Made by a program: the position numbers and the translations under genes. A DNA stretch of 50,480 bases, taken from Candidatus Wolfebacteria bacterium (GTDB lineage: Bacteria; Patescibacteriota; Minisyncoccia; Phycocordibacterales; NVSU01). Location of the stretch: NCBI GenBank assembly GCA_002401345.1, contig NVSU01000004.1, positions 628 to 51,107 on the forward strand, given 5' to 3'. Below are positions 1 to 41,354 of the stretch, piece after piece (position 1 is the stretch's first letter; every line of letters begins with the position of its first letter). Under the pieces are notes generated by a model. It saw nothing but the letters and a program-made list of their open reading frames with translations. It was not told the DNA's origin and searched no databases.

Positions 1-678
1 ATATTCCGGAAGAACCTTGAATACAATTATGAGTGCAGTTAGTATTGCAAAACCACACAAGATTGACGCGACACCGGTACGTGTAACTGTTATAAAAATA
101 TACACCACTGTAGCTGGAACAATAAAGGCTGCATACGCAACTGCCAACCAATAGAGCGCTTTATTTTTCTTATTGTTCTTGTCACGCATGTGAAAGAAAA
201 TCATTGAGATTCCTATAATCAAAAATAGTAAATAATATGCACTGTGCAATAATTTATAGGAACCTAATGAATCAAATATGACAAAATTTCCTGTACATGA
301 TGTTGATATAAATATATCTGGAACAAAAATGATTATAAGTGAAAGAATCACCGCAATGATATACCCTATTTTTGTCCATATAGTTTTTTTAGTTATAAGT
401 GATATTAGGTGTACTCCTAGTATCGGCAGAAACGCTATACTTATAAATGCAATTTTTGACCAGAGGAGTGGTTGAACACCTTTACAGATTAAATATTCAG
501 ATAGCTGAAAAATTCCAAGGATGAATAATAGTAATGCAGAAAGACGACCAAACAAATTCATTCGATATTTTATGATGACATACAGTGCTAACACTATCTC
601 TATAATGAACGTGAGCAGCGTGACTAAGGGAGTGAAACAATATAATGTTATTGAGTTATTTTTCTTAGAACATTTCAT
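1..678 (-). CDS. Multi-pass membrane protein (HisKA_7TM-like N-terminal domain), 3' end off the window
   Basis: Manual translation from ATG at 678: MKCSKKNNSITLYCFTPLVTLLTFIIEIVLALYVII...FQLSEYLIC...VLPEY. The frame is open to base 1 with about 7 hydrophobic segments. Absent from the ORF track because it has no stop in the window. Confidence 0.7.
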   Translation of the reverse strand, partial: MKCSKKNNSITLYCFTPLVTLLTFIIEIVLALYVIIKYRMNLFGRLSALLLFILGIFQLSEYLICKGVQPLLWSKIAFISIAFLPILGVHLISLITKKTIWTKIGYIIAVILSLIIIFVPDIFISTSCTGNFVIFDSLGSYKLLHSAYYLLFLIIGISMIFFHMRDKNNKKNKALYWLAVAYAAFIVPATVVYIFITVTRTGVASILCGFAILTALIIVFKVLPEY

Positions 679-813
679 CCCGTAGTGAAAAATGACATTG
701 CTCCTTCAAGAGCATGTGAATCAAAATTTAAATTATTTGTAAAGTTTCGAATTACGTTGTTCATATTAAAAATATAGTATCCAACTAATGTCATTTTCTA
801 CTACGGGATTCAT
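674..813 (-). repeat. Family-A inverted-repeat element, copy 1, at the start codon of the 7TM gene
   Basis: Sense strand reads ATGAA-TCCCGTAGTAGAAAATGACATT...AATGTCATTTTTCACTACGGG-ATGAA. The two ATGs (813 and 678) are 135 nt apart. Highly similar to 2193-2332. Confidence 0.9.
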
Positions 814-868
814 CGTATATATTCTATTATACCTTGAAACTTTCAATATCTACTACATACTGTTTCAA

Positions 869-887
869 CCTGTCCTCCTGTGGAGGG
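869..887. repeat. Short palindromic element sharing both ends with the dnaK in-frame insert
   Basis: CCTGTCCTCC-tgt-GGAGGG here versus CCTGTCCTCC-gtagcttttgcaga-GGAGGG at 15890-15919. Confidence 0.5.
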
Positions 888-911
888 AACCTTGTGTGAA
901 TGAAAATAAAA

Positions 912-935
912 AAAGCCCCCACAATGGAGGGCTTT
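912..935 (-). terminator. Intrinsic terminator
   Basis: AAAGCCC(C)CC-acaat-GG(A)GGGCTTT hairpin. The A-run on + is the U-tract on -. Confidence 0.7.
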
Positions 936-961
936 AAAAGTTTCAGATCAGTAGATCTTCA

Positions 962-1240
962 TTAACCAAGTTCAATATGACCTTTTTTGGAATGTATCTC
1001 CTTCCTGAGTTTTTTGCAGTGCCAGTGTTCATATATCAAGAATGGAGTGACAAGAAGCGCTACTACAATAAGACCAGTTGCTTCTGCAGCTTGATCCATA
1101 AACACAACAAGGGCAGCAACGAGACATAATCCAATGACTGCCAAAAGTAATTGATTTCTTGTTTGTTTAGAGTGCTTTAACAATCTATGCAGGCGTGACT
1201 CATTATCTTCTTGTTCTGAATGATTAGGTGATAAATCCAT
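962..1240 (-). CDS. Orphan small membrane protein (2 TM)
   Basis: 92-aa ORF with two hydrophobic helices, its own promoter and terminator. Confidence 0.7.
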   Translation of the reverse strand: MDLSPNHSEQEDNESRLHRLLKHSKQTRNQLLLAVIGLCLVAALVVFMDQAAEATGLIVVALLVTPFLIYEHWHCKKLRKEIHSKKGHIELG

Positions 1241-1282
1241 ATTGTATTTAATTTAATGTTCAAAAATGTAATTTCTACGTGC

Positions 1283-1311
1283 AATATATCACGATATAAG
1301 TCCATTGTCAA
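1283..1311 (-). promoter_or_regulatory. sigma70 promoter
   Basis: TTGACA-17 nt (ending TGA)-TATATT. Confidence 0.7.
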
Positions 1312-1380
1312 CATATCGTAATGGTTCAATAGCTTGGAATCACTTTTAGTAGTAAATTCAAATATATGTCATATAAAAAA

Positions 1381-1404
1381 ATAGTCCTGATTGCTCAGGA
1401 CTAT
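1381..1404 (-). terminator. Intrinsic terminator
   Basis: ATAGTCCTGA-ttgc-TCAGGACTAT preceded by an A-run on +. Confidence 0.75.
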
Positions 1405-1410
1405 AAAGTT

Positions 1411-1947
1411 TCAATTTGCACGAATGTTTGTTTTCCTATCAAATTCACATCGTTTTAATGGCTCAAGCGTTGGAGTAACATGTATCAATTTCTCCTCTTC
1501 ATCATTTCCCTCCTCTACATCAGGTCTGAGTTCAGTCTGAACAATATAGAAATTCATAATATTCCACTCATCACCTAATTCATGATTAAAGTCAGATCTA
1601 AGAATCTGCCATGATCCACCCTCAAATTCGAAATTAAATTCAATCTTTATTGCATCAATAATCTCTTCTATATCTTTGTCATCCACTACCAAAAGTATTG
1701 TCGGTTCCTGATATAGTTTTCCTAATACAGAATTTATGAGATCGCACCTAGTATAAAGGCTAGCCATAAAGTTAACTCGTGATCCAAATAACTGCTCGGA
1801 CAAATCAAAAATAATTTTCAACTTTTCCTGTCCTGCGATTACTTTTCTGAATTCTGGATTCATATACACTAAAGGTAAAATCTCTCTCGTTTCAAAATGA
1901 ATGTTTATTGTCTTACTGCCGTACGTTGCGATGAATATTCTTTTCAT
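1411..1947 (-). CDS. Orphan hypothetical protein
   Basis: 178-aa ORF with its own promoter and terminator. No family recognised. Confidence 0.7.
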   Translation of the reverse strand: MKRIFIATYGSKTINIHFETREILPLVYMNPEFRKVIAGQEKLKIIFDLSEQLFGSRVNFMASLYTRCDLINSVLGKLYQEPTILLVVDDKDIEEIIDAIKIEFNFEFEGGSWQILRSDFNHELGDEWNIMNFYIVQTELRPDVEEGNDEEEKLIHVTPTLEPLKRCEFDRKTNIRAN

Positions 1948-1979
1948 ATTAAAAAACTAAACGGTTTAAATCTTTTTCT

Positions 1980-2008
1980 AGAATATCATTGTTTATAGGA
2001 AATGTCAA
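1980..2008 (-). promoter_or_regulatory. sigma70 promoter
   Basis: TTGACA-17 nt (ending TGA)-TATTCT. Confidence 0.7.
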
Positions 2009-2064
2009 TTTTGGGAATTGTCTAAACTCCTTATTTTTTGGTACTCTGTACCTATACATCGTTA

Positions 2065-2191
2065 GATCCTGTAGTCCCGACGTCCCTAAAATGTCGGGAG
2101 TCGGGAAGCCGATCGTAGCATCGGCTCTCAGTTTGGTTAGAGTGCATCGTTGACATCGATGAGGTCAGAGGTTCAAGTCCTCTCAGGATCA
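2065..2191 (+). tRNA. tRNA-Val(GAC) interrupted by a 52-nt insertion (2075-2126) between G10 and C11
   Basis: Acceptor GATCCTG/CAGGATC. D-stem G|CTC/GAGT. Anticodon arm CATCG-TTGACAT-CGATG. T arm AGAGG-TTCAAGT-CCTCT. No encoded CCA. Confidence 0.85.
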
Positions 2192-2192
2192 C

Positions 2193-2332
2193 ATGAATCC
2201 CGTAGTAGAAAATAGCATTAGTGGGATACTATATTTTTAATATGAATAACATAATTCGAAACCTTGTAAATAATTTAAATTTCGGTTCACATGCTCTTGA
2301 AGGAGCAATGCCATTTTTCACTACGGGATGAA
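2193..2332 (+). repeat. Family-A element, copy 2
   Basis: ATGAA-TCCCGTAGTAGAAAATAGCATT...AATGCCATTTTTCACTACGGG-ATGAA, 135-nt unit. Confidence 0.9.
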
Positions 2333-2456
2333 TCCCGTTAGAGATCTAAACGCTATGTAGTGGACTTTACAGAGAATCTACAGATATAATAAAAACAATC
2401 AGAATTTATTACGCATTATACGGAAATCTTTGATTTCCTATCTCTAACGGGATGAA
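2328..2456 (+). repeat. Family-A' element in tandem with copy 2
   Basis: ATGAA-TCCCGTTAGAGAT...ATCTCTAACGGG-ATGAA, 124-nt unit with the subterminal hairpin GGAAATC-ttt-GATTTCC. Confidence 0.85.
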
Positions 2457-2550
2457 AATATTAAGTATAGAAACCCCAGTACCTCATCGCTTCGCGCTGG
2501 CTACTCGCCTCGCTAATGCTCTGGCGAAGCGGGCGGGGCAAGAAGTAGTG
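2452..2550 (+). pseudogene. Duplicated tsaD 5' end interrupted by a GC-rich palindromic insert (2474-2538)
   Basis: ATGAAAATATTAAGTATAGAAAC is identical to 2595-2617. After the CCCCAGTA...GGGG insert the sequence resumes with CAAG, as in tsaD. Confidence 0.75.
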
Positions 2551-2594
2551 TTACAGATTAATATAAGAAAATTAGTAAAACACGATTGAACAAC

Positions 2595-3779
2595 ATGAAA
2601 ATATTAAGTATAGAAACAAGTTGTGATGAGACTGCATTAAGTATTATTGATGCAGGTGGTGAGTTAGATGCTCCTACATTCTCAATTCTATCTAATCAAA
2701 TTGCATCTCAAATAGAAATCCATAAAGAATATGGGGGTGTCTTCCCTGCACTTGCCAAACGTGAACATAGCAAAAATATACTACCGCTTTTGGAAAAAAC
2801 TCTGAATGATGCACATGTGATCAACTCTGGTAGCACAACTGTCAATGAAGACGCCCAAAAAAAAGCACATTCTATATTAGAGCGAGAAGATATGCTTTCA
2901 ACACAATTATTAGAATATGTGTCTTCTCATGAGATACCCGACATAGATCTTATAGCAGTCACGTACGGACCCGGTCTAGAACCTGCACTGTGGGTAGGAC
3001 TTAATTTTGCAAAAGCACTTTCAGTGCTATGGAATAAGACGCTTATCCCAGTAAATCATATGGAAGGACATTTGGTGTCTTCTCTACTTTCAATTGACAA
3101 TGATCCTACAGGTATACAAAAAATAAATAAAGTAGAATTTCCTGCGATTTCACTTCTTATTAGCGGTGGACATACGGAATTGGTGTTAGTAAAAAACTGG
3201 ATGGACTACACTATTTTAGGAGAAACTGTTGATGATGCAGTAGGAGAGGCATTTGATAAAGTGGCCCGTATGCTCGAGCTTCCTTATCCTGGTGGACCAG
3301 AAATTTCAAAACTTGCAGAAAAATCATCAACTTCTGATCTTGAAATCACTCTTCCTCGACCCATGATTAACTCAAAAGATTATAATTTTTCATTTTCAGG
3401 TCTCAAGACTGCTGTCTTATATAAACTAAAGGAGTTTCCCGAAATAACTGACGACATTAAAATAACAATTGCAAAAGAATTTCAAAATGCCGCCACTGAT
3501 GTTCTCATTAAAAAAACTATGCGTGCAGCAGATGAATATGGAGCAAAGACGATTCTTGTAGGAGGAGGCGTCGCCGCAAACACCCACATTAGAGAGACAT
3601 TAGAAAATGAGTCTGAAAACAGAGATCTTATGCTCCGTATACCACGAAAAGACATTGCAACGGATAATTCTATAATGATCGGTATGGCAGGATATTTTCG
3701 TTACTTGGGAAGTAAAAATGGGACAATAGATCTTCCTGACCCCCACCCACTTCGCGCCTGTGGGAATTTGGGATTATAA
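2595..3779 (+). CDS. tsaD: tRNA N6-adenosine threonylcarbamoyltransferase
   Basis: MKILSIETSCDET start, GPGL, HMEGH, SGGHT, DDAVGEAFDK, FSFSGLK and DNSIMIG motifs. Start moved to the ATG at 2595. Confidence 0.97.
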   Translation: MKILSIETSCDETALSIIDAGGELDAPTFSILSNQIASQIEIHKEYGGVFPALAKREHSKNILPLLEKTLNDAHVINSGSTTVNEDAQKKAHSILEREDMLSTQLLEYVSSHEIPDIDLIAVTYGPGLEPALWVGLNFAKALSVLWNKTLIPVNHMEGHLVSSLLSIDNDPTGIQKINKVEFPAISLLISGGHTELVLVKNWMDYTILGETVDDAVGEAFDKVARMLELPYPGGPEISKLAEKSSTSDLEITLPRPMINSKDYNFSFSGLKTAVLYKLKEFPEITDDIKITIAKEFQNAATDVLIKKTMRAADEYGAKTILVGGGVAANTHIRETLENESENRDLMLRIPRKDIATDNSIMIGMAGYFRYLGSKNGTIDLPDPHPLRACGNLGL

Positions 3780-3806
3780 AAACCCTTACATAAAAGTAAG
3801 GGTTTT
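3779..3806. terminator. Bidirectional terminator
   Basis: AAAACCCTTAC-ataaaa-GTAAGGGTTTT between convergent genes. Confidence 0.75.
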
Positions 3807-3864
3807 GGATATACTTGATCTTTATAGGACCTCTTCATAGTCAACAAAAGGTTGATCAAAAAAT

Positions 3865-4152
3865 TTACCAGCTTTTTTGTCTACATTGATCGCACATATC
3901 ATCAATGTGATCAGTAGTAGTATCAGTGTTCATATTTGTATTAATTACGTATACTCCACATCCTCCACTACAATATCCTTCATATCTATTGTGTAGCAGA
4001 TATGGACTTGAAACAACAGTTATTATAGCCATAATAACTAAGGTACTTATAACAATTGATACAACAACAGCAATTAACGCTAAACCCGAAAAAAGAAAAA
4101 ACGATAGCACAAGACCAGCTAGACCCACAATAAATAGTACGATTTTTTTCAT
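3865..4152 (-). CDS. Orphan small membrane protein with a C-terminal Cys cluster
   Basis: Hydrophobic N-terminal half, then CSGGC...CDQC. Promoter TTGACA-17-TATTAT at 4208-4236. Confidence 0.65.
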   Translation of the reverse strand: MKKIVLFIVGLAGLVLSFFLFSGLALIAVVVSIVISTLVIMAIITVVSSPYLLHNRYEGYCSGGCGVYVINTNMNTDTTTDHIDDMCDQCRQKSW

Positions 4153-4348
4153 ATTCTGTGTATTTTAAAGTATTATTTGTTTCAAAAAACTCTATTTATT
4201 CATACAGATAATACTATTCTATATACACACTGTCAAGAATTATCTGTATACGGGAACATAGGAAAACCTATTTTAGGATGTATATATTTTTGAATTATAA
4301 ACCTCTTTTCTTTTGAATAAAGCCTTATATTTTGCTATCATTGAACAC

Positions 4349-7138
4349 ATGAACGATGATAATAAAGCGGACGATCCCAAAAAAGAAACTACATCTAAGT
4401 TCACAGATAAATTCTTAAAACCCTATGATTCCAAGGAAACTGAGGATCGTATATACAAACTCTGGGAGGAGAGTGGCTTTTTTAATCCTGATACCCTTAT
4501 AAAGGAGAATATTATCGATGCTGAGGCTGAGCCCTTCTCTATCGTACTTCCACCACCTAACGTTACGGGAACACTTCACACTGGACATGCTGCAATGCTC
4601 GCAATAGAAGATATAATGGTTCGATTTAATCGAATGAGAGGAAAAAAGGCATTATGGATCCCTGGAACAGACCATGCTGCAATTGCGACTCAATCACTCG
4701 TAGAAAAGCAACTCGCTAAAAAGAAGATACGGAGGCAAGACATAGGTCGTGAGGAATTTCTGAAACACGTTGATGCATTTGCCAGCGAATCACATGACAC
4801 GATCGTAAATCAGATTCGAAAAATGGGTGCGTCTATAGATTGGTCTCGCGAAGCATTTACACTTGATAATACTCGTGAAAAAGCTGTTCGTACTGCATTT
4901 AAAAGAATGTATGATGATGGATTGATTTATCGAGGATATAGAATTGTAAACTGGGATCCCAAGGGCCAAACAACTATTTCAGATGATGAGGTTCAACACG
5001 AGGACAGAAAGGCACACATGTATACCTTTAAATATTCTAAAGACTTCCCTATCTCAATTGCGACCACACGACCCGAAACAAAAGTTGGTGACACTGCTGT
5101 GGCAGTTCATCCTGATGATGACCGATATAAAAAATATATTGGTAACACCTATGAACTCGAATTTGCAGGTGTTCCCCTTTCAATACAAATTGTAGGAGAT
5201 GATAAAGTTGATCCAGAATTTGGAACTGGAGCAGTAGGAGTAACTCCTGCTCATAGTATGACCGACTGGGAAATAGCTCAGCGACATGACCTTCCAATGA
5301 AACAAGTGATCAATGAGTATGCAAAGATGATGGTAGATGCGCCAGAGCTCAAGGATAAGAAAACTACTGAGGCGAGGGAGATCATTGTGAAATGGCTCAC
5401 TGATGAGGAACTTCTCGAACATACAGAAGAAGTAGATCAAAGTATTTCTGTGGCTGAGCGTACAAATGGAATTATTGAGCCAATACCTAAATTACAATGG
5501 TTTATAGACGTACATAAAGAATTTACTCTCGCTAATTCACATATAGATGGAATAAAATCTGGTCAAAAGACATCACTAAAGGAGCTTATGCTTACTGTTG
5601 TTAAAAATGATCAAATCAAGATCATTCCCGAAAGATTTGAAAAAACATATTTTCATTGGATAGAAAATCTGCGTGACTGGAATATCTCGCGACAAATCTG
5701 GTATGGCCACAGAGTTCCTGTATGGTATGACAAGGATGATGCTATTCATCTTCAAGAGGAACATAACATTATTTTCATACGTCATGGACAAAGTGAAACT
5801 AATGCGAGTGGGATTATTGCAGGAAATACCGACACACCATTAACAGATAAGGGGCGAGCACAAGCACAAGATGAAGTTAAAAGCTTAAAGGAACGTAACA
5901 TTACGAAAATTATCTCCTCTGATCTAAGTCGATCAAAAGAAACCGCTGAGATTATAGGGCGTGAACTCGGCATTAAAGTTGAGTCATGGTGTGAATTGCA
6001 CGAAGTTGATGCAGGAGATATTCAAGGTACATTTAAGGATCCTGAAAATCATTTTCTACAAAGGGCACAAGATGCACACACAGGTGAAACATTAGAACAA
6101 ATTGAATATCGTGCGCGATTAATTATTGAGAAACTAAAATCTCTCAATGAAACTGGAAATGTACTTGTCGTCGGTCATGATGCATTTATTGCAATGATAT
6201 TTGGCGTGTGGAACAATGTTCCCAAAGAACGACTTATGGACCATATAAATAGCTGGAAGAGCTTGGACAATGCAAAAGGATTGGATGTTCAAATCTTAAC
6301 TGATCCCCAGGGAGAAGATTTAACACAAGACCCTGACACACTTGATACATGGTTCTCTTCTGGACTATGGACATTTTCAACACTCGGATGGCCTTCTCAA
6401 ACTGATGACCTCAAGACATATCACCCAACGAACGTACTGGAAACAGGACATGATTTGCTATTTTTCTGGATTGCACGAATGATTCTTATGACCACATATC
6501 TTCTGGGTGATATCCCCTTTCGAACAGTATACTTCCACGGACTTATTTTAGATAAAGATGGAAAGAAGATGAGTAAGTCTCGACCGGAGACTGCCATTGA
6601 TCCACTCATTGCAATAGAAAAATTTGGTGCTGACGCACTTCGTATGGCTATGATTGTTGGAGTGGGCCCAGGAAGCAGTAACACCCTCTCCGATGAGAAA
6701 ATTAAGGCGTATAAAAAATTTGCAAATAAACTTTGGAATGCAACACGATATGTACTTGAGAGTATAGGGGATTTTGATACGGAACGCACAGTCACACTTA
6801 CAAAGAAGCACGCGTCGTATATAGACGAATTACATGCGCTCGTAAATGAAATAACTAATGAAATGGAAGAATACAAATATTACCTCGTAGCAGAAAAACT
6901 CTATCACTATTTCTGGCATACGTTTGCAGATGTTATTATAGAAGAGAGCAAAGACCTACTTACACATGGTACTGAGGAGGAAAAACTGTCTGCTCACTAT
7001 ACACTTTGGACAATTCTGACCACACTTCTAAAACTACTTCATCCTTTTATGCCGTATGTCACAGAAGAAATTTGGGGAGCACTTCCGCATAACAAAACTC
7101 ATTTATTAATGGTCGAAAAATGGCCAATTCAAAAATAG
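4349..7138 (+). CDS. valS: Valine--tRNA ligase with an inserted histidine-phosphatase domain
   Basis: PPPNVTGTLHTGH, WNISRQIWYGH, DTWFSS and KMSKS motifs, plus an RHG-domain insertion. Start moved to ATG 4349, 7 nt after TG-c-TATCAT. Confidence 0.96.
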   Translation: MNDDNKADDPKKETTSKFTDKFLKPYDSKETEDRIYKLWEESGFFNPDTLIKENIIDAEAEPFSIVLPPPNVTGTLHTGHAAMLAIEDIMVRFNRMRGKKALWIPGTDHAAIATQSLVEKQLAKKKIRRQDIGREEFLKHVDAFASESHDTIVNQIRKMGASIDWSREAFTLDNTREKAVRTAFKRMYDDGLIYRGYRIVNWDPKGQTTISDDEVQHEDRKAHMYTFKYSKDFPISIATTRPETKVGDTAVAVHPDDDRYKKYIGNTYELEFAGVPLSIQIVGDDKVDPEFGTGAVGVTPAHSMTDWEIAQRHDLPMKQVINEYAKMMVDAPELKDKKTTEAREIIVKWLTDEELLEHTEEVDQSISVAERTNGIIEPIPKLQWFIDVHKEFTLANSHIDGIKSGQKTSLKELMLTVVKNDQIKIIPERFEKTYFHWIENLRDWNISRQIWYGHRVPVWYDKDDAIHLQEEHNIIFIRHGQSETNASGIIAGNTDTPLTDKGRAQAQDEVKSLKERNITKIISSDLSRSKETAEIIGRELGIKVESWCELHEVDAGDIQGTFKDPENHFLQRAQDAHTGETLEQIEYRARLIIEKLKSLNETGNVLVVGHDAFIAMIFGVWNNVPKERLMDHINSWKSLDNAKGLDVQILTDPQGEDLTQDPDTLDTWFSSGLWTFSTLGWPSQTDDLKTYHPTNVLETGHDLLFFWIARMILMTTYLLGDIPFRTVYFHGLILDKDGKKMSKSRPETAIDPLIAIEKFGADALRMAMIVGVGPGSSNTLSDEKIKAYKKFANKLWNATRYVLESIGDFDTERTVTLTKKHASYIDELHALVNEITNEMEEYKYYLVAEKLYHYFWHTFADVIIEESKDLLTHGTEEEKLSAHYTLWTILTTLLKLLHPFMPYVTEEIWGALPHNKTHLLMVEKWPIQK

Positions 7139-38414: not shown

Positions 38415-38483
38415 ATCATCACCCTGTGAAATCTTTTGCTACATGCAAAAGAAAAAATCTTTGATTTTTTATTTCACTGGGGT
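38415..38483 (-). repeat. Family-B structured leader element, copy 2 (mreB leader)
   Basis: Sense ACCCCAGTGAAAT...ATTTCACAGGGT-GATGAT, 31 nt before the ATG and downstream of the promoter TTGACA-16-TAAAAT (38524-38551). Confidence 0.85.
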
Positions 38484-38606
38484 CTAAAAAAATATACTCA
38501 TTACAATCGTTATTTGTTTGACAATTTTACCATACCGAAAAGGAGTGTCAAATTTTAATATATATGTATAATACAATCAGAATAGTGATCATATAAAACA
38601 AAAGAC

Positions 38607-39281
38607 ATGATAGAATTATTTTTATTTTTTATTATTCTTGTTATTGGAATAGTAAGCACAGCCTTATGGTTTCAAGAAACACACGTTATCGCACCTGTAA
38701 GCACTCTGTCTCTTGATAAACGTATCGTCTCACGAAAAAAAATGAGCCAGTGGACTCCAAGGAATCATGTACTCATTGAATTTCTTCCAGTCGTGCACGC
38801 TCATCTCATGAATACAAACGTACATGCAGTGCTCGAGAAATTGGGATATAGAATGCTCTCAGAGAGAGAAAAATATATTATCAGAAAGCAATATTCATAT
38901 GAATCAAGCTTTACTAACTTTATCGTTGTATTTCCGCACAAAAAAGGATCGAACTTACATACGAGTGGTATCTCGTGCATACAGTGGACTGAAAATGGTG
39001 TCACGTATACCAGTGATGCATCTCGACATAACATTCAGTGTGTAATGAGAATGAAAAAATACATTCTTAAAGACTCTTTGGTGAATTCATTCTATGTAGG
39101 TGTCACGAGGAATAAAACGACACTATGGACAACAATTCTTGATCGCACGTATGATATCAAAGTAGCACTGTCTGCTTTATTAATTTTCATTAAAAATAAA
39201 GCCCAAAAAGCTCTCACACAGAGAGCTTTTTTTTATATCCCTGTGATACACTTAGGGCATGAATCCCGTAGTAGAAAATGA
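38607..39281 (+). CDS. Orphan hypothetical protein with an N-terminal TM; 3' end doubtful
   Basis: 224-aa ORF that reads through a terminator-like hairpin (39206-39233) and stops inside family-A copy 3. Confidence 0.5.
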   Translation: MIELFLFFIILVIGIVSTALWFQETHVIAPVSTLSLDKRIVSRKKMSQWTPRNHVLIEFLPVVHAHLMNTNVHAVLEKLGYRMLSEREKYIIRKQYSYESSFTNFIVVFPHKKGSNLHTSGISCIQWTENGVTYTSDASRHNIQCVMRMKKYILKDSLVNSFYVGVTRNKTTLWTTILDRTYDIKVALSALLIFIKNKAQKALTQRAFFYIPVIHLGHESRSRK

Positions 39282-39397
39282 CATTATGGGAACATCATAG
39301 TGTATGTATTGTAGTAAGTCGAAATTGTATAAGTAATTAATAATATGTGGCATACATGCTCCTTAAAGAGCGATGTCATTTTTCACTACGGGATGAA
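39259..39397 (+). repeat. Family-A element, copy 3, at the priA start
   Basis: ATGAA-TCCCGTAGTAGAAAATGACATT...GATGTCATTTTTCACTACGGG-ATGAA, 134-nt unit with a divergent interior. Confidence 0.9.
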
Positions 39398-41354
39398 AAT
39401 AGTTAGTGTAATTCCATATTCTAAGGGGATTCACAAGGAAACGCTCACCTATTTCAGTTCAAAAGATATTCCTGTGGGAAGTATTGTGACTGTTCCTGTG
39501 AGAAAAAAACTTGTGACCGCATTTGTGACTGAGTCTAAAGATCTTCTCAAGGCAAAGTCTGATGTGAAGTCATCCTCGTTTAATTTAAAAAAAGTTGATT
39601 CGATTGTTGGGCCTTCTCTGTTTAATCAGGAGTTCTTTTACACCGTACGTGACCTTAAAAAATATTATGCGACTCATTCAAGTTTACTGTTTAGTTCCCT
39701 CATTCCAACACTCTTTCTAAAAAAGTACGCACAACTTACGCTTCCTCATATTGCTTCAGAAAAAAGTACCTCGTCTATACGACAAGAAAAATTATTATTC
39801 CAATCTCCTGATGAGGAACGATTGAGTTACTACAAAACCTATATTCGTGAATCATTTGCAAAAGGTGAGTCGCTTTTTATATGTCTTCCAAATAGTAATG
39901 ACATACAAACTTTTCTTCCAATAATTAGCAAAGGGATCGAACAATATGTATTTGTGCTTCATGGTGCCCTTACAGATAAAAAACAAATTGAGGTCTATAA
40001 TAAACTTATTGATGAAACACACCCTGTGGTAATTATCGCAACAGGGTCATATCTCTTTGTTCCACGCAATGATATTGGAACTATCATTGTTGAGCGAGAA
40101 AGTTCATCTACATATAAAACATTCACACGTCCCTATATTGACATGCGAATCGTTGCTGAAATCTATTCTCACTATTTAAATGCCAAGCTCATATACGCAG
40201 ATACATATTTACGAACGGAGACACTGTGGAGACATGATCAAAACGAGTTCTCTGAAGTAGATCAATTTAATTTTAGACCACCTATTCAATTGAAACATCC
40301 TATTATAGATGTAAGAAAAAATATTAAAGACGAACCACAAAAAAAATCTAAAAAATTCTCGGCATTAAATGATGAAGTACTTCAACTTATACACACTGCA
40401 TTAAAAGAAAATAGGAAAATATTCCTCTTTGTACTCCGGAAAGGTCTCGCGGGGATAACGGTCTGTAACGACTGTGGAACAGCAGTACTTTGTGAATCGT
40501 GCTCGGTACCAATGACACTTTTCAATCAGAAAAATAAGATCACCCATAAAGGCAAAAAAGAAAGCATATTCATATGTAATAAATGTAGAGCAGTTAAGAG
40601 AACAAATGTGATATGTAAAGAATGTGATAGCTGGAATCTCGTATCACTTGGAATTGGAATTGAAAGCGTACTAAAGGAAGTCAAGAATGAATTTAGTGAT
40701 GCCAAAGTATTTGTAATTGAAGGTGAAACTGTGAAGACAAAAACTCAGGGTAAAAAAATTATCTCTGAGTTTAATTCATCCACCAATGGAATACTTGTGG
40801 GGACCGAAATGGCACTTTCATATATAAATGAGAAAGTTGATGAGAGTGTGGTGGTCTCATTTGATTCATTGTTCTCAATTCCGGGGTTTAGAATTAATGA
40901 AAGGGTTCTCAAACTTCTTACTTCTCTTTCCTCAATTTCTAAAAACTCGGTACGTATACAAACCAAGAATCCTGATGAATCAATTCTTACACATATTCAA
41001 GAGAGGACCATGGTTGATTTTTTCAGAGAAGAATTAAAGCTGAGAAAACAATTCAACTATCCTCCTTTTTCGACACTTATTAAAATCAGTTTCAGTGGAA
41101 ATACAAAAGATGTAGAAAAAGCTCATGATATGTTTCATACATTATTTAATTCATACCCCCTTGAACTATTCAGGTCAGTTATTACCAAAGGTAAGCGCTT
41201 GCATGCTATACACGCAATACTCAGAATTGATCGATCTACATGGGCACTCCCCTCACGTGGTACTAAAGGCGAGCTCGACACATTGCTTCTCGAAAAACTC
41301 ATCTCTCTCCCTCCTTCATATATAGTACATATCGATCCAGAGGATCTGTTGTAA
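39393..41354 (+). CDS. priA: Primosomal protein N' (divergent helicase motifs)
   Basis: MKIVSVIP...LTY...GSIVTVP N-domain, four CxxC pairs, GIE, ILVGT, YPPF and the C-terminal IDPEDLL. Confidence 0.88.
   Translation: MKIVSVIPYSKGIHKETLTYFSSKDIPVGSIVTVPVRKKLVTAFVTESKDLLKAKSDVKSSSFNLKKVDSIVGPSLFNQEFFYTVRDLKKYYATHSSLLFSSLIPTLFLKKYAQLTLPHIASEKSTSSIRQEKLLFQSPDEERLSYYKTYIRESFAKGESLFICLPNSNDIQTFLPIISKGIEQYVFVLHGALTDKKQIEVYNKLIDETHPVVIIATGSYLFVPRNDIGTIIVERESSSTYKTFTRPYIDMRIVAEIYSHYLNAKLIYADTYLRTETLWRHDQNEFSEVDQFNFRPPIQLKHPIIDVRKNIKDEPQKKSKKFSALNDEVLQLIHTALKENRKIFLFVLRKGLAGITVCNDCGTAVLCESCSVPMTLFNQKNKITHKGKKESIFICNKCRAVKRTNVICKECDSWNLVSLGIGIESVLKEVKNEFSDAKVFVIEGETVKTKTQGKKIISEFNSSTNGILVGTEMALSYINEKVDESVVVSFDSLFSIPGFRINERVLKLLTSLSSISKNSVRIQTKNPDESILTHIQERTMVDFFREELKLRKQFNYPPFSTLIKISFSGNTKDVEKAHDMFHTLFNSYPLELFRSVITKGKRLHAIHAILRIDRSTWALPSRGTKGELDTLLLEKLISLPPSYIVHIDPEDLL

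Follow-up and report, generated by a model that had tools for sequence, protein, structure and literature searches.

Short inverted-repeat elements on start codons of a Candidatus Wolfebacteria genome and their probable kinship with a GIY-YIG nuclease cassette

Why do several genes of a Candidatus Wolfebacteria genome begin immediately behind a hairpin-forming repeat that has an ATG on either side? The question is raised by a stretch of 50,480 nucleotides (hereafter the window; positions 628 to 51,107 of contig NVSU01000004.1, C3 in our numbering, assembly GCA_002401345.1), in which four repeats, named A and A', had been noticed from the letters of the DNA and proposed to insert at start codons with duplication of ATGAA (the original prediction). 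The source genome (G000) comprises 897 kb in 24 contigs with ~36% GC. The end motifs of the units were searched on both strands of the whole genome, and relatives were sampled from 300 other genomes of the same order and from a wider genome collection. The A and A' units, the latter referred to here as type B, carry a 4-bp target-site duplication and are probably non-autonomous miniatures, similar to miniature inverted-repeat transposable elements (MITEs), of a Patescibacteria micro-transposon that contains a GIY-YIG nuclease gene and no other.

Four units in the window and a 4-bp duplication at initiation codons

The units and the features directly associated with them have the following positions in the window.

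1 to 678, minus strand: host gene 1, with the rebuilt ATG 678-676 as its start; membrane protein, 363 aa in the contig
674 to 677, minus strand: downstream 4-bp duplicate TGAA of copy 1, which rebuilds the host ATG with the last base of the element (678)
678 to 808, minus strand: A-type unit, copy 1, spanning 131 nt (terminal T to terminal A), with a 22-bp terminal inverted repeat and an RNA fold z of -6.6
700 to 713, minus strand: small hairpin adjoining the gene-side terminal repeat of copy 1, from the RNA fold and the family-wide analysis
809 to 813, minus strand: upstream target copy of copy 1 (TGAA plus the original A of the host ATG), opening a putative relic open reading frame (ORF) of 15 codons, MNPVVEN...
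2123 to 2192, plus strand: tRNA-Val(GAC), immediately 5' of the A-B array (ARAGORN; Rfam tRNA, 34 bits)
2193 to 2197, plus strand: upstream ATGAA of copy 2 (target copy TGAA at 2194-2197)
2198 to 2328, plus strand: A-type unit, copy 2, 131 nt
2329 to 2332, plus strand: TGAA common to the A unit and the next B unit (tandem joint)
2333 to 2452, plus strand: B-type unit (A' in the original prediction), 120 nt, with ends matching full-length GIY-YIG cassettes of related genomes
2453 to 2456, plus strand: downstream TGAA of the A-B array; the ATG 2452-2454 opens a 45-codon ORF
2596 to 3779, plus strand: tsaD proper, the first 23 nt of which (2596-2618) equal 2452-2474
39259 to 39263, plus strand: upstream ATGAA of copy 3, 6 nt 3' of a -10-like TACACT box
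39264 to 39393, plus strand: A-type unit, copy 3, 130 nt, fold z of -5.4
39394 to 39397, plus strand: downstream TGAA of copy 3
39393 to 41354, plus strand: priA (653 aa), starting at the rebuilt ATG; its orthologues begin at the same residue and are mostly element-free

The four units lie where the original prediction had placed them, and all display the inverted ends TCCCGT...ACGGGA. Copies 1 and 2 align end to end with the reported 135-nt period and are 92% identical. The upstream ATG opens the short peptide MNPVVEN... described for the A units (15, 15, and 13 codons), and the corresponding ORF of the B unit has 10 codons. The claim that the downstream ATGAA is a gene start in three of the units holds for the membrane-protein gene and for priA but not for the A-B array, in which this ATG opens the duplicate of the tsaD start, the real ATG being located at 2596.

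The census of the genome revealed 42 units in 32 arrays (18 units of type A, 19 of type B, 3 of type C, and 2 of type D), with 41 short units of 120 to 133 nt that are non-coding. Tandem neighbors always have one TGAA in common. A start-like upstream triplet is present in 30 of the 32 arrays (ATG in 28, GTG in 1, and a decayed ATA in 1), and in 26 the rebuilt ATG behind the last unit is the first codon of an ORF of 100 aa or more, with a canonical-looking N terminus; the location at start codons proposed for the window is therefore borne out by the genome-wide fraction. The host genes, at least 25 in this one genome, are functionally unrelated, and their N termini lead us to assume that they include those for GAPDH, MurG, LeuRS, GltX, RuvC, TruB, Dut (dUTPase), L9, RsmA, and PriA. 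Four of the six exceptions are also at starts, namely, those of the tsaD duplicate, of a uvrB-like gene whose frame is broken after the start, and of two ORFs of only 34 and 26 aa. The two non-start sites are occupied by B units, one at ACGAA, two codons short of the stop codon of the preceding gene, and the other at TACA in a spacer. The orientation relative to the gene is identical in all 30 arrays at starts, as had been concluded from the window.

Flanks that depart from TGAA do so on both sides of the array (TGAG/TGAG twice, TGGA/TGGA three times, CGAA/CGAA once, and TACA/TACA once), and the sole mismatched pair is TAAA/TGAA. If the left copy is preceded by G, T, or C (GTGAA, TTGAA, GTACA, GTCAA, and CAGAA), the right copy is still preceded by A, indicating that the A of the downstream ATG is the terminal base of the element. 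This last A pairs with the first T of the element. Since it belongs to the element, an ATG is created before any duplicated TGAA, and GTG or TTG starts become ATG. The covariation of the flanks supports a true target-site duplication at initiation codons, as originally proposed, although its length is 4 bp, usually TGAA, and not that of ATGAA.

The ORFs opened by the upstream ATG are of 6 to 46 codons in the short units and differ between copies. In this frame, a stop is found before the downstream ATG in 36 of the 42 units, the ORF ends at the TGA overlapping that ATG in 6, and read-through into the host gene occurs in none (0/42). Translational coupling was considered as a general rule for the miniatures and rejected because only 6 of the 42 ORFs end in an ATGA overlap, 9 ending at a TAA located 4 nt before the ATG and the rest earlier.

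Stem and hairpin structures were analyzed in a set of 85 A-type units. The A-type terminal stem consists of 19 pairs, 99.4% of which are formed across the set, and the compensatory change noticed between copies 1 and 2 recurs in the family, one position being G-C in 53 and A-U in 24 of the 85 units. The terminal inverted repeat of B units is 14 bp long. Predicted RNA folds of the four window units have z values of -3.9 to -6.6; in these folds, the stem brings the upstream and downstream AUGs side by side and engages the A and U of the functional AUG in base pairs, in agreement with the partial sequestration suggested previously. Single-stranded DNA would form the same terminal stem. Of 84 units, 73 have a small hairpin adjoining the gene-side end, with 43 different stem sequences, versus 27% in shuffled controls. 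This count was made per sequence, since a count by MAFFT columns, which are out of register, gives only 50% pairing of the inner hairpin. A hairpin adjoining the upstream end was dismissed (47/85 versus 48% in shuffled controls). Read on the bottom strand, the gene-side end is a conserved sequence of ~26 nt followed by a variable hairpin.

Shine-Dalgarno (SD)-like motifs precede only 3.8% of 716 crude gene starts, and a -10-like TANNNT box is located 5 to 9 nt before the ATG in 19 of the 32 arrays, in comparison to 33% of genes (p = 0.002). Across the genome, -10-like boxes peak 6 to 7 nt 5' of the ATG. Initiation in this genome therefore seems to be generally leaderless and independent of SD sequences. 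Given the -10 boxes near the ATG, many of the hosts look leaderless, and the element would begin at the first base of the transcript. Alignments of the gene-side end, judged by eye, did not reveal any convincing -10/-35 pair or correctly spaced SD sequence directed outward. We infer, rather than observe, the mode in which host genes are translated behind the hairpin.

Full-length cassettes and the spread of the units

An intact coding element is present in the same genome at C11:21955-22243. It has C-type ends, TGAA on both sides, and a length of 284 nt from ATG to ATG. Its ORF of 95 codons begins at the ATG of the flank; its stop is a TGA that overlaps the rebuilt start of a murJ-like gene (563 aa). 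The 95-aa product is a GIY-YIG protein (Pfam PF01541, E = 7.6e-16, residues 10 to 80 of 95), for which the nearest solved proteins are UPF0213 1ZG2 and 1YWL (BH0048 and EF2693); a profile search of NCBIfam with this protein returned no family above the cutoff. Matches to the protein occur in 243 of the 300 sampled genomes, a tally in which one unpublished genome (G249) is counted. Among 30 loci of the order, the full-length cassettes with recognizable ends are 275 to 285 nt long, have B-, C-, or D-type ends, and encode proteins of 86 to 95 codons, most of the ORFs ending in ...TG* with a stop provided by the TGA of the flank. Here and at the other recognizable loci, the GIY-YIG ORF is the only one found in coding elements with these ends, which lie within the coding frame.

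Of the full form, the miniatures retain ~30 nt at the beginning and ~25 nt at the end. The short MNPV... ORF appears to be the decayed N terminus of the GIY-YIG gene of the cassette, a relationship that would explain the whole anatomy of the units. These are short, non-coding, and multi-copy, with terminal inverted repeats and a target duplication, as is characteristic of MITEs. A longer coding element with the same ends, which is also expected of a MITE family, was found for the C, B, and D ends and not for the exact A ends.

Small GIY-YIG ORFs number eight in this genome, and each is accompanied by a distinct kind of inverted or direct repeat. Two intact cassettes have A-like ends but other flanks (C10, with TCAA, and C11:30436). 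They are among six small GIY-YIG ORFs, again each with repeats of its own, at C6:2256-2465, C6:16776-17073, C4:16004-16244, C10:4305-4466, C11:30436-30715, and C20:11734-12016. Two of these six directly adjoin tRNA genes, one of them with a duplication of ~40 nt in which the tRNA 5' end is contained. GC-rich ends, CCCCGCCCCCTA, are found on one of the six, and A-like ends with TCAA flanks on one.

According to the mechanism that we propose, the full form would be an element of ~280 nt with only an 86- to 95-codon GIY-YIG gene between TCCCGT...ACGGGA inverted ends. It would insert at a 4-nt target, mostly TGAA, that is read on one strand and then duplicated. As the element ends in A, the downstream copy would always read A plus TGAA, and a host whose ATGAA start was the target would regain its ATG. 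The ORF of the element would use the original ATG and the promoter of the host and would stop at the TGA overlapping the rebuilt ATG. Short units would arise by internal deletion followed by amplification and would presumably depend for their movement on a nuclease supplied in trans by an intact cassette whose outer ends are the same.

Several observations show that the units are mobile. B copies that are 97 to 98% identical over the whole unit (97 to 99% in the interior) are located at unrelated genes on different contigs, and two genes with unrelated flanks carry an A-A dimer with 97.5% identity between its copies; the median interior identity of units is 65 to 70%. Elements are nested at two loci from records of metagenome-assembled genomes (MAGs), L082 and L129, where shorter elements of the CCCAGTAGTAGA... 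end family lie inside A-type units, the compound element of L129 being located on what we take to be a lepA-like start. The empty allele with a single ATGAA anticipated by the original prediction was found at priA: in 29 other genomes the orthologues begin at the same residue, 27 are element-free, and 18 have a single ATGAA start.

Among the 300 other genomes of the order, 29 contain A-type DNA. In the genome collection, a 20-mer made up of TGAA and the A left end has exact matches in 69 stretches, all labeled as Patescibacteria MAGs. There are 83 distinct A units outside this genome, 9 of which are followed by another unit. The remaining 74 have A as the base before TGAA, a position outside the query, in 72 cases, and 69 of them open an ORF of at least 60 aa, versus 22% of 1,957 other ATGAA sites at the same loci. 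The starts of priA, murG, lepA, and topA, named by N-terminal sequence, are occupied in several genera; because the murG array of this genome is young, this looks like recurrent insertion rather than inheritance. When contigs from four DNA runs were compared with the window, the matches were merely cross-matches due to other repeat copies, and no joint cleanly removed a unit. A short contig from a second study that joins a different tRNA end directly to the tsaD ATG at 2596 was not counted, being only ~90% alike over 51 nt.

Two copies of the first 23 nt of tsaD (ATGAAAATATT...), spaced by 144 nt (window 2452-2618), flank a GC-rich insert of 121 nt. This insert begins with CCCAGTA, resembling the left end of another GIY-YIG end family, and the duplicate with its insert looks like a second, different insertion with a long duplication. 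In the tRNA-Val gene, the 3' acceptor arm CAGGATC (2184-2190) pairs perfectly with GATCCTG at 2067-2073 and not with the 5' end assigned by ARAGORN; a hairpin-forming, GC-rich insert of ~50 nt lies between tRNA position 9 and the D arm (window 2067-2192) and may be intron-like or mobile. At 38455-38494, ~110 nt 5' of an ORF starting at 38608, sequence resembling the gene side of a B unit precedes ATTTCACTGGGGT, which is the type of end found on the GIY-YIG cassette at G000 C11:30436-30715; this is probably a relic of another end family. On contig C12, the Y1 ORF at 1183-1900 (IS200-like and possibly associated with repetitive extragenic palindromes [REPs]) has a 25-nt palindrome on each side, which forms a separate repeat system. 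Contig C24 (76 kb), with 44.5% GC versus 35 to 39% for the other contigs (32.6% for C9), holds the sole DDE_Tnp_1 match and may come from another organism.

Insertion preference, survivorship, and the mobilizing enzyme

Several points weigh against the derivation of these units from a GIY-YIG transposon. GIY-YIG enzymes are not, to our knowledge, known to catalyze strand transfer. The genome encodes rve and other transposases, and 4-bp duplications are typical of DDE transposases, the combination of terminal inverted repeats and a 4-bp duplication being their classic signature. A full-length element with exact A-type ends was found neither in the 300 genomes (0/300 with up to 2 mismatches, only A-A tandems being matched) nor in the genome collection (0 exact-pattern matches), and the link of family A to the nuclease rests on the shared outer 7 nt, on the same target, and on the A-like ends of the two cassettes at C10 and C11:30436. 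Concerning the occupancy of starts, some of the copies counted as independent may be inherited or block-copied, and the gene calls used for the tally of TGAA sites are crude (first-ATG ORFs of at least 80 aa).

According to this tally, the genome without the units contains 13,398 TGAA sites, including 11,273 in crude ORFs, 1,830 in intergenic DNA, and 295 at the ATGAA starts of 854 crude genes. Arrays of the TGAA type open an ORF of at least 100 aa in 22 of 25 cases, versus 14% expected from non-coding TGAA sites (p = 2e-16) and 34% expected if only ATGAA sites are counted (p = 3e-8), both p values taking insertions as independent. Start-codon occupancy is far above that expected from the availability of TGAA or ATGAA sites. 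This excess might reflect survivorship, any TGAA or ATGAA being hit, with insertions within genes being lethal, neutral intergenic ones being soon lost by the deletion bias of a reduced genome, and those at starts being locked in because only a precise deletion would keep the gene alive. We regard this as a possible account, if the less likely one. It draws on the fact that the target is defined by its sequence and is not confined to starts, as the B units at ACGAA and TACA illustrate, and on the age of many copies, which is implied by the median interior identity; one array has even lost its upstream ATG (ATAAA), pointing to long residence. However, per-site occupancy amounts to ~22/295 for ATGAA starts versus 2/1,830 for intergenic TGAA, and the excess persists in the count limited to ATGAA sites. 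The youngest B copies, which form two clusters with 96 to 99% interior identity (seven units), are moreover all in arrays on starts, although there has been little time for deletion. Because of the excess at starts and of the location of these youngest copies, we favor a real insertion preference, start codons being presumably chosen at insertion and not merely kept by selection.

The DDE signature raises the question of whether the units could be ordinary MITEs of a DDE-type insertion sequence, for example of the rve-domain type, the GIY-YIG gene being a passenger or an unrelated cassette that shares the ends. The genome does contain candidates for such an origin, namely, four rve-domain ORFs, a DDE_Tnp_1, and a Y1-like ORF. 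None of these genes is bounded by TCCCGT/ACGGGA ends, however, nor is any such hexamer placed to bound them, the Y1-like ORF (C12:1183-1900) having different, palindromic flanks, and it is the GIY-YIG ORF, and no other, that was found inside the ends here and at the other loci of the order with recognizable ends. Insertion by a DDE enzyme should also give random orientation, whereas all 30 arrays at starts are in the sense of the gene. Two reversed cases, one on C12 in this genome and one at priA in genome G094, are located at TGTA, which is TACA in the orientation of the element itself, indicating that orientation follows the target strand and not the gene. An orientation bound to the target strand fits a single-strand mechanism better than a DDE one, and we consider the DDE alternative to be quite improbable.

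The GIY-YIG protein itself would presumably be the mobilizing enzyme, acting on single-stranded DNA. A more far-reaching version, which we think unlikely although it would account for several features at once, is that the bare 86- to 95-residue GIY-YIG domain represents a new class of transposase whose target is 5'-(A)TGAA of the non-template strand. At leaderless genes, whose transcripts begin at the ATG, this strand would be exposed for long in the open or scrunched complex of the promoter, and this would explain docking on starts, the sense orientation, and the excess of -10 boxes. The element would be a parasite that borrows the promoter and the start codon of its host and returns an ATG. 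The miniatures would retain the gene-side hairpin because the enzyme, like the Ssn nucleases considered below, would bind this hairpin and cut beside it.

A primary role as cis-regulatory 5' leader RNAs, with a hairpin hiding the AUG, ribosome bypass, or RNA excision as suggested in the original prediction, and with mobility being secondary, appears very improbable to us. The strong predicted stem, in which the A and U of the functional AUG take part in pairing, and the covarying stem position speak for such leaders, and mobility alone gives no explanation for the retention of a gene-side hairpin with 43 different stem sequences in 73 of 84 units. In opposition to this role, the host genes are unrelated in function and their orthologues are mostly element-free, the same stem is possible in single-stranded DNA, and the interiors of the units fall to 65 to 70% identity. 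An Rfam scan of window positions 1 to 5000 with E values up to 1 returned tRNA only and no match to the units.

Known systems and implications for Patescibacteria

The closest known system is that of the Ssn nucleases (GIY-YIG clade cd10448) with their hairpin repeats. According to the parts of the article considered here (Chenal et al. 2025, PMC11893778), Ssn proteins consist of a single GIY-YIG nuclease domain and cleave single-stranded DNA next to a hairpin repeat (NTS/SRM); this directional repeat brackets the gene and is also dispersed in the genome. The authors describe the architecture as insertion-sequence-like, compare it with IS200/IS605 and REP/RAYT, and present Ssn as a domesticated modulator of transformation (PMC11893778). 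As far as these parts of the article go, both systems have a single-domain GIY-YIG gene of ~100 aa between inverted, hairpin-forming repeats and many dispersed copies without the gene, and the bottom-strand layout of our gene-side end, a conserved sequence of ~26 nt plus a variable hairpin, is that reported for the Ssn recognition site. In contrast, the same parts of PMC11893778 contain no target duplication, start-codon position, rebuilding of an ATG, or ORF borrowing the start of a host, and the terms "start codon" and "Patescibacteria" each occur 0 times in its main text. Recent spread is evident for the present element. Our literature search, to which supplements that could hold Patescibacteria homologues did not belong, did not retrieve any description of a GIY-YIG element at start codons.

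Other mobile sequences share part of this anatomy. Correia elements of Neisseria, which are MITEs co-transcribed with genes, are likewise short and multi-copy, with terminal inverted repeats, a target duplication, a long hairpin in the transcript, and a location just 5' of genes. They duplicate TA and are not known to be tied to start codons, whereas the present units are located exactly on the ATG, rebuild it, have a constant orientation, and would come from a nuclease cassette and not from a DDE insertion sequence. The "peel and paste" elements of the IS200/IS605 family and the REP/RAYT systems also have a strand- and sequence-specific target beside one end, an orientation fixed relative to that target, and hairpin DNA at an end, and they are very small, with gene-less derivatives. 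These systems rely on a Y1 HUH transposase and are not known to duplicate their target, unlike the present element, which encodes a GIY-YIG protein, has covarying 4-bp flanks, and carries a subterminal hairpin at the gene-side end only. Placement of a selfish GIY-YIG gene between or before genes is also known for the seg genes of phages and intron-borne I-TevI. In homing GIY-YIG enzymes the nuclease is joined to a DNA-binding domain, and homologous repair serves to copy them into a single cognate site; the present protein, by comparison, is a bare domain of 86 to 95 aa, and the elements combine inverted ends with a duplication and occupy at least 25 unrelated genes in one genome. Finally, Rickettsia palindromic elements are in frame and translated within the host protein, in contrast to the lack of read-through in all 42 units.

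If the GIY-YIG protein moves these elements, the full form, with ~280 bp, would be the smallest autonomous transposon known to us, and a nuclease fold not known for transposition would be used for that purpose. Docking on a start codon, borrowing the promoter and the ATG, and returning an ATG would allow a parasite to multiply in genomes that consist almost wholly of essential coding sequence. For annotation, the consequence is that gene callers will mis-start or split dozens of genes per Patescibacteria genome. The occupied genes carry a structured leader of 120 to 400 nt in an organism almost devoid of SD sites and thereby offer a natural experiment on translation initiation. Together with Ssn, the element suggests a large reservoir of small DNA-cutting enzymes with sequence specificity, every one of which has a defined hairpin for recognition.

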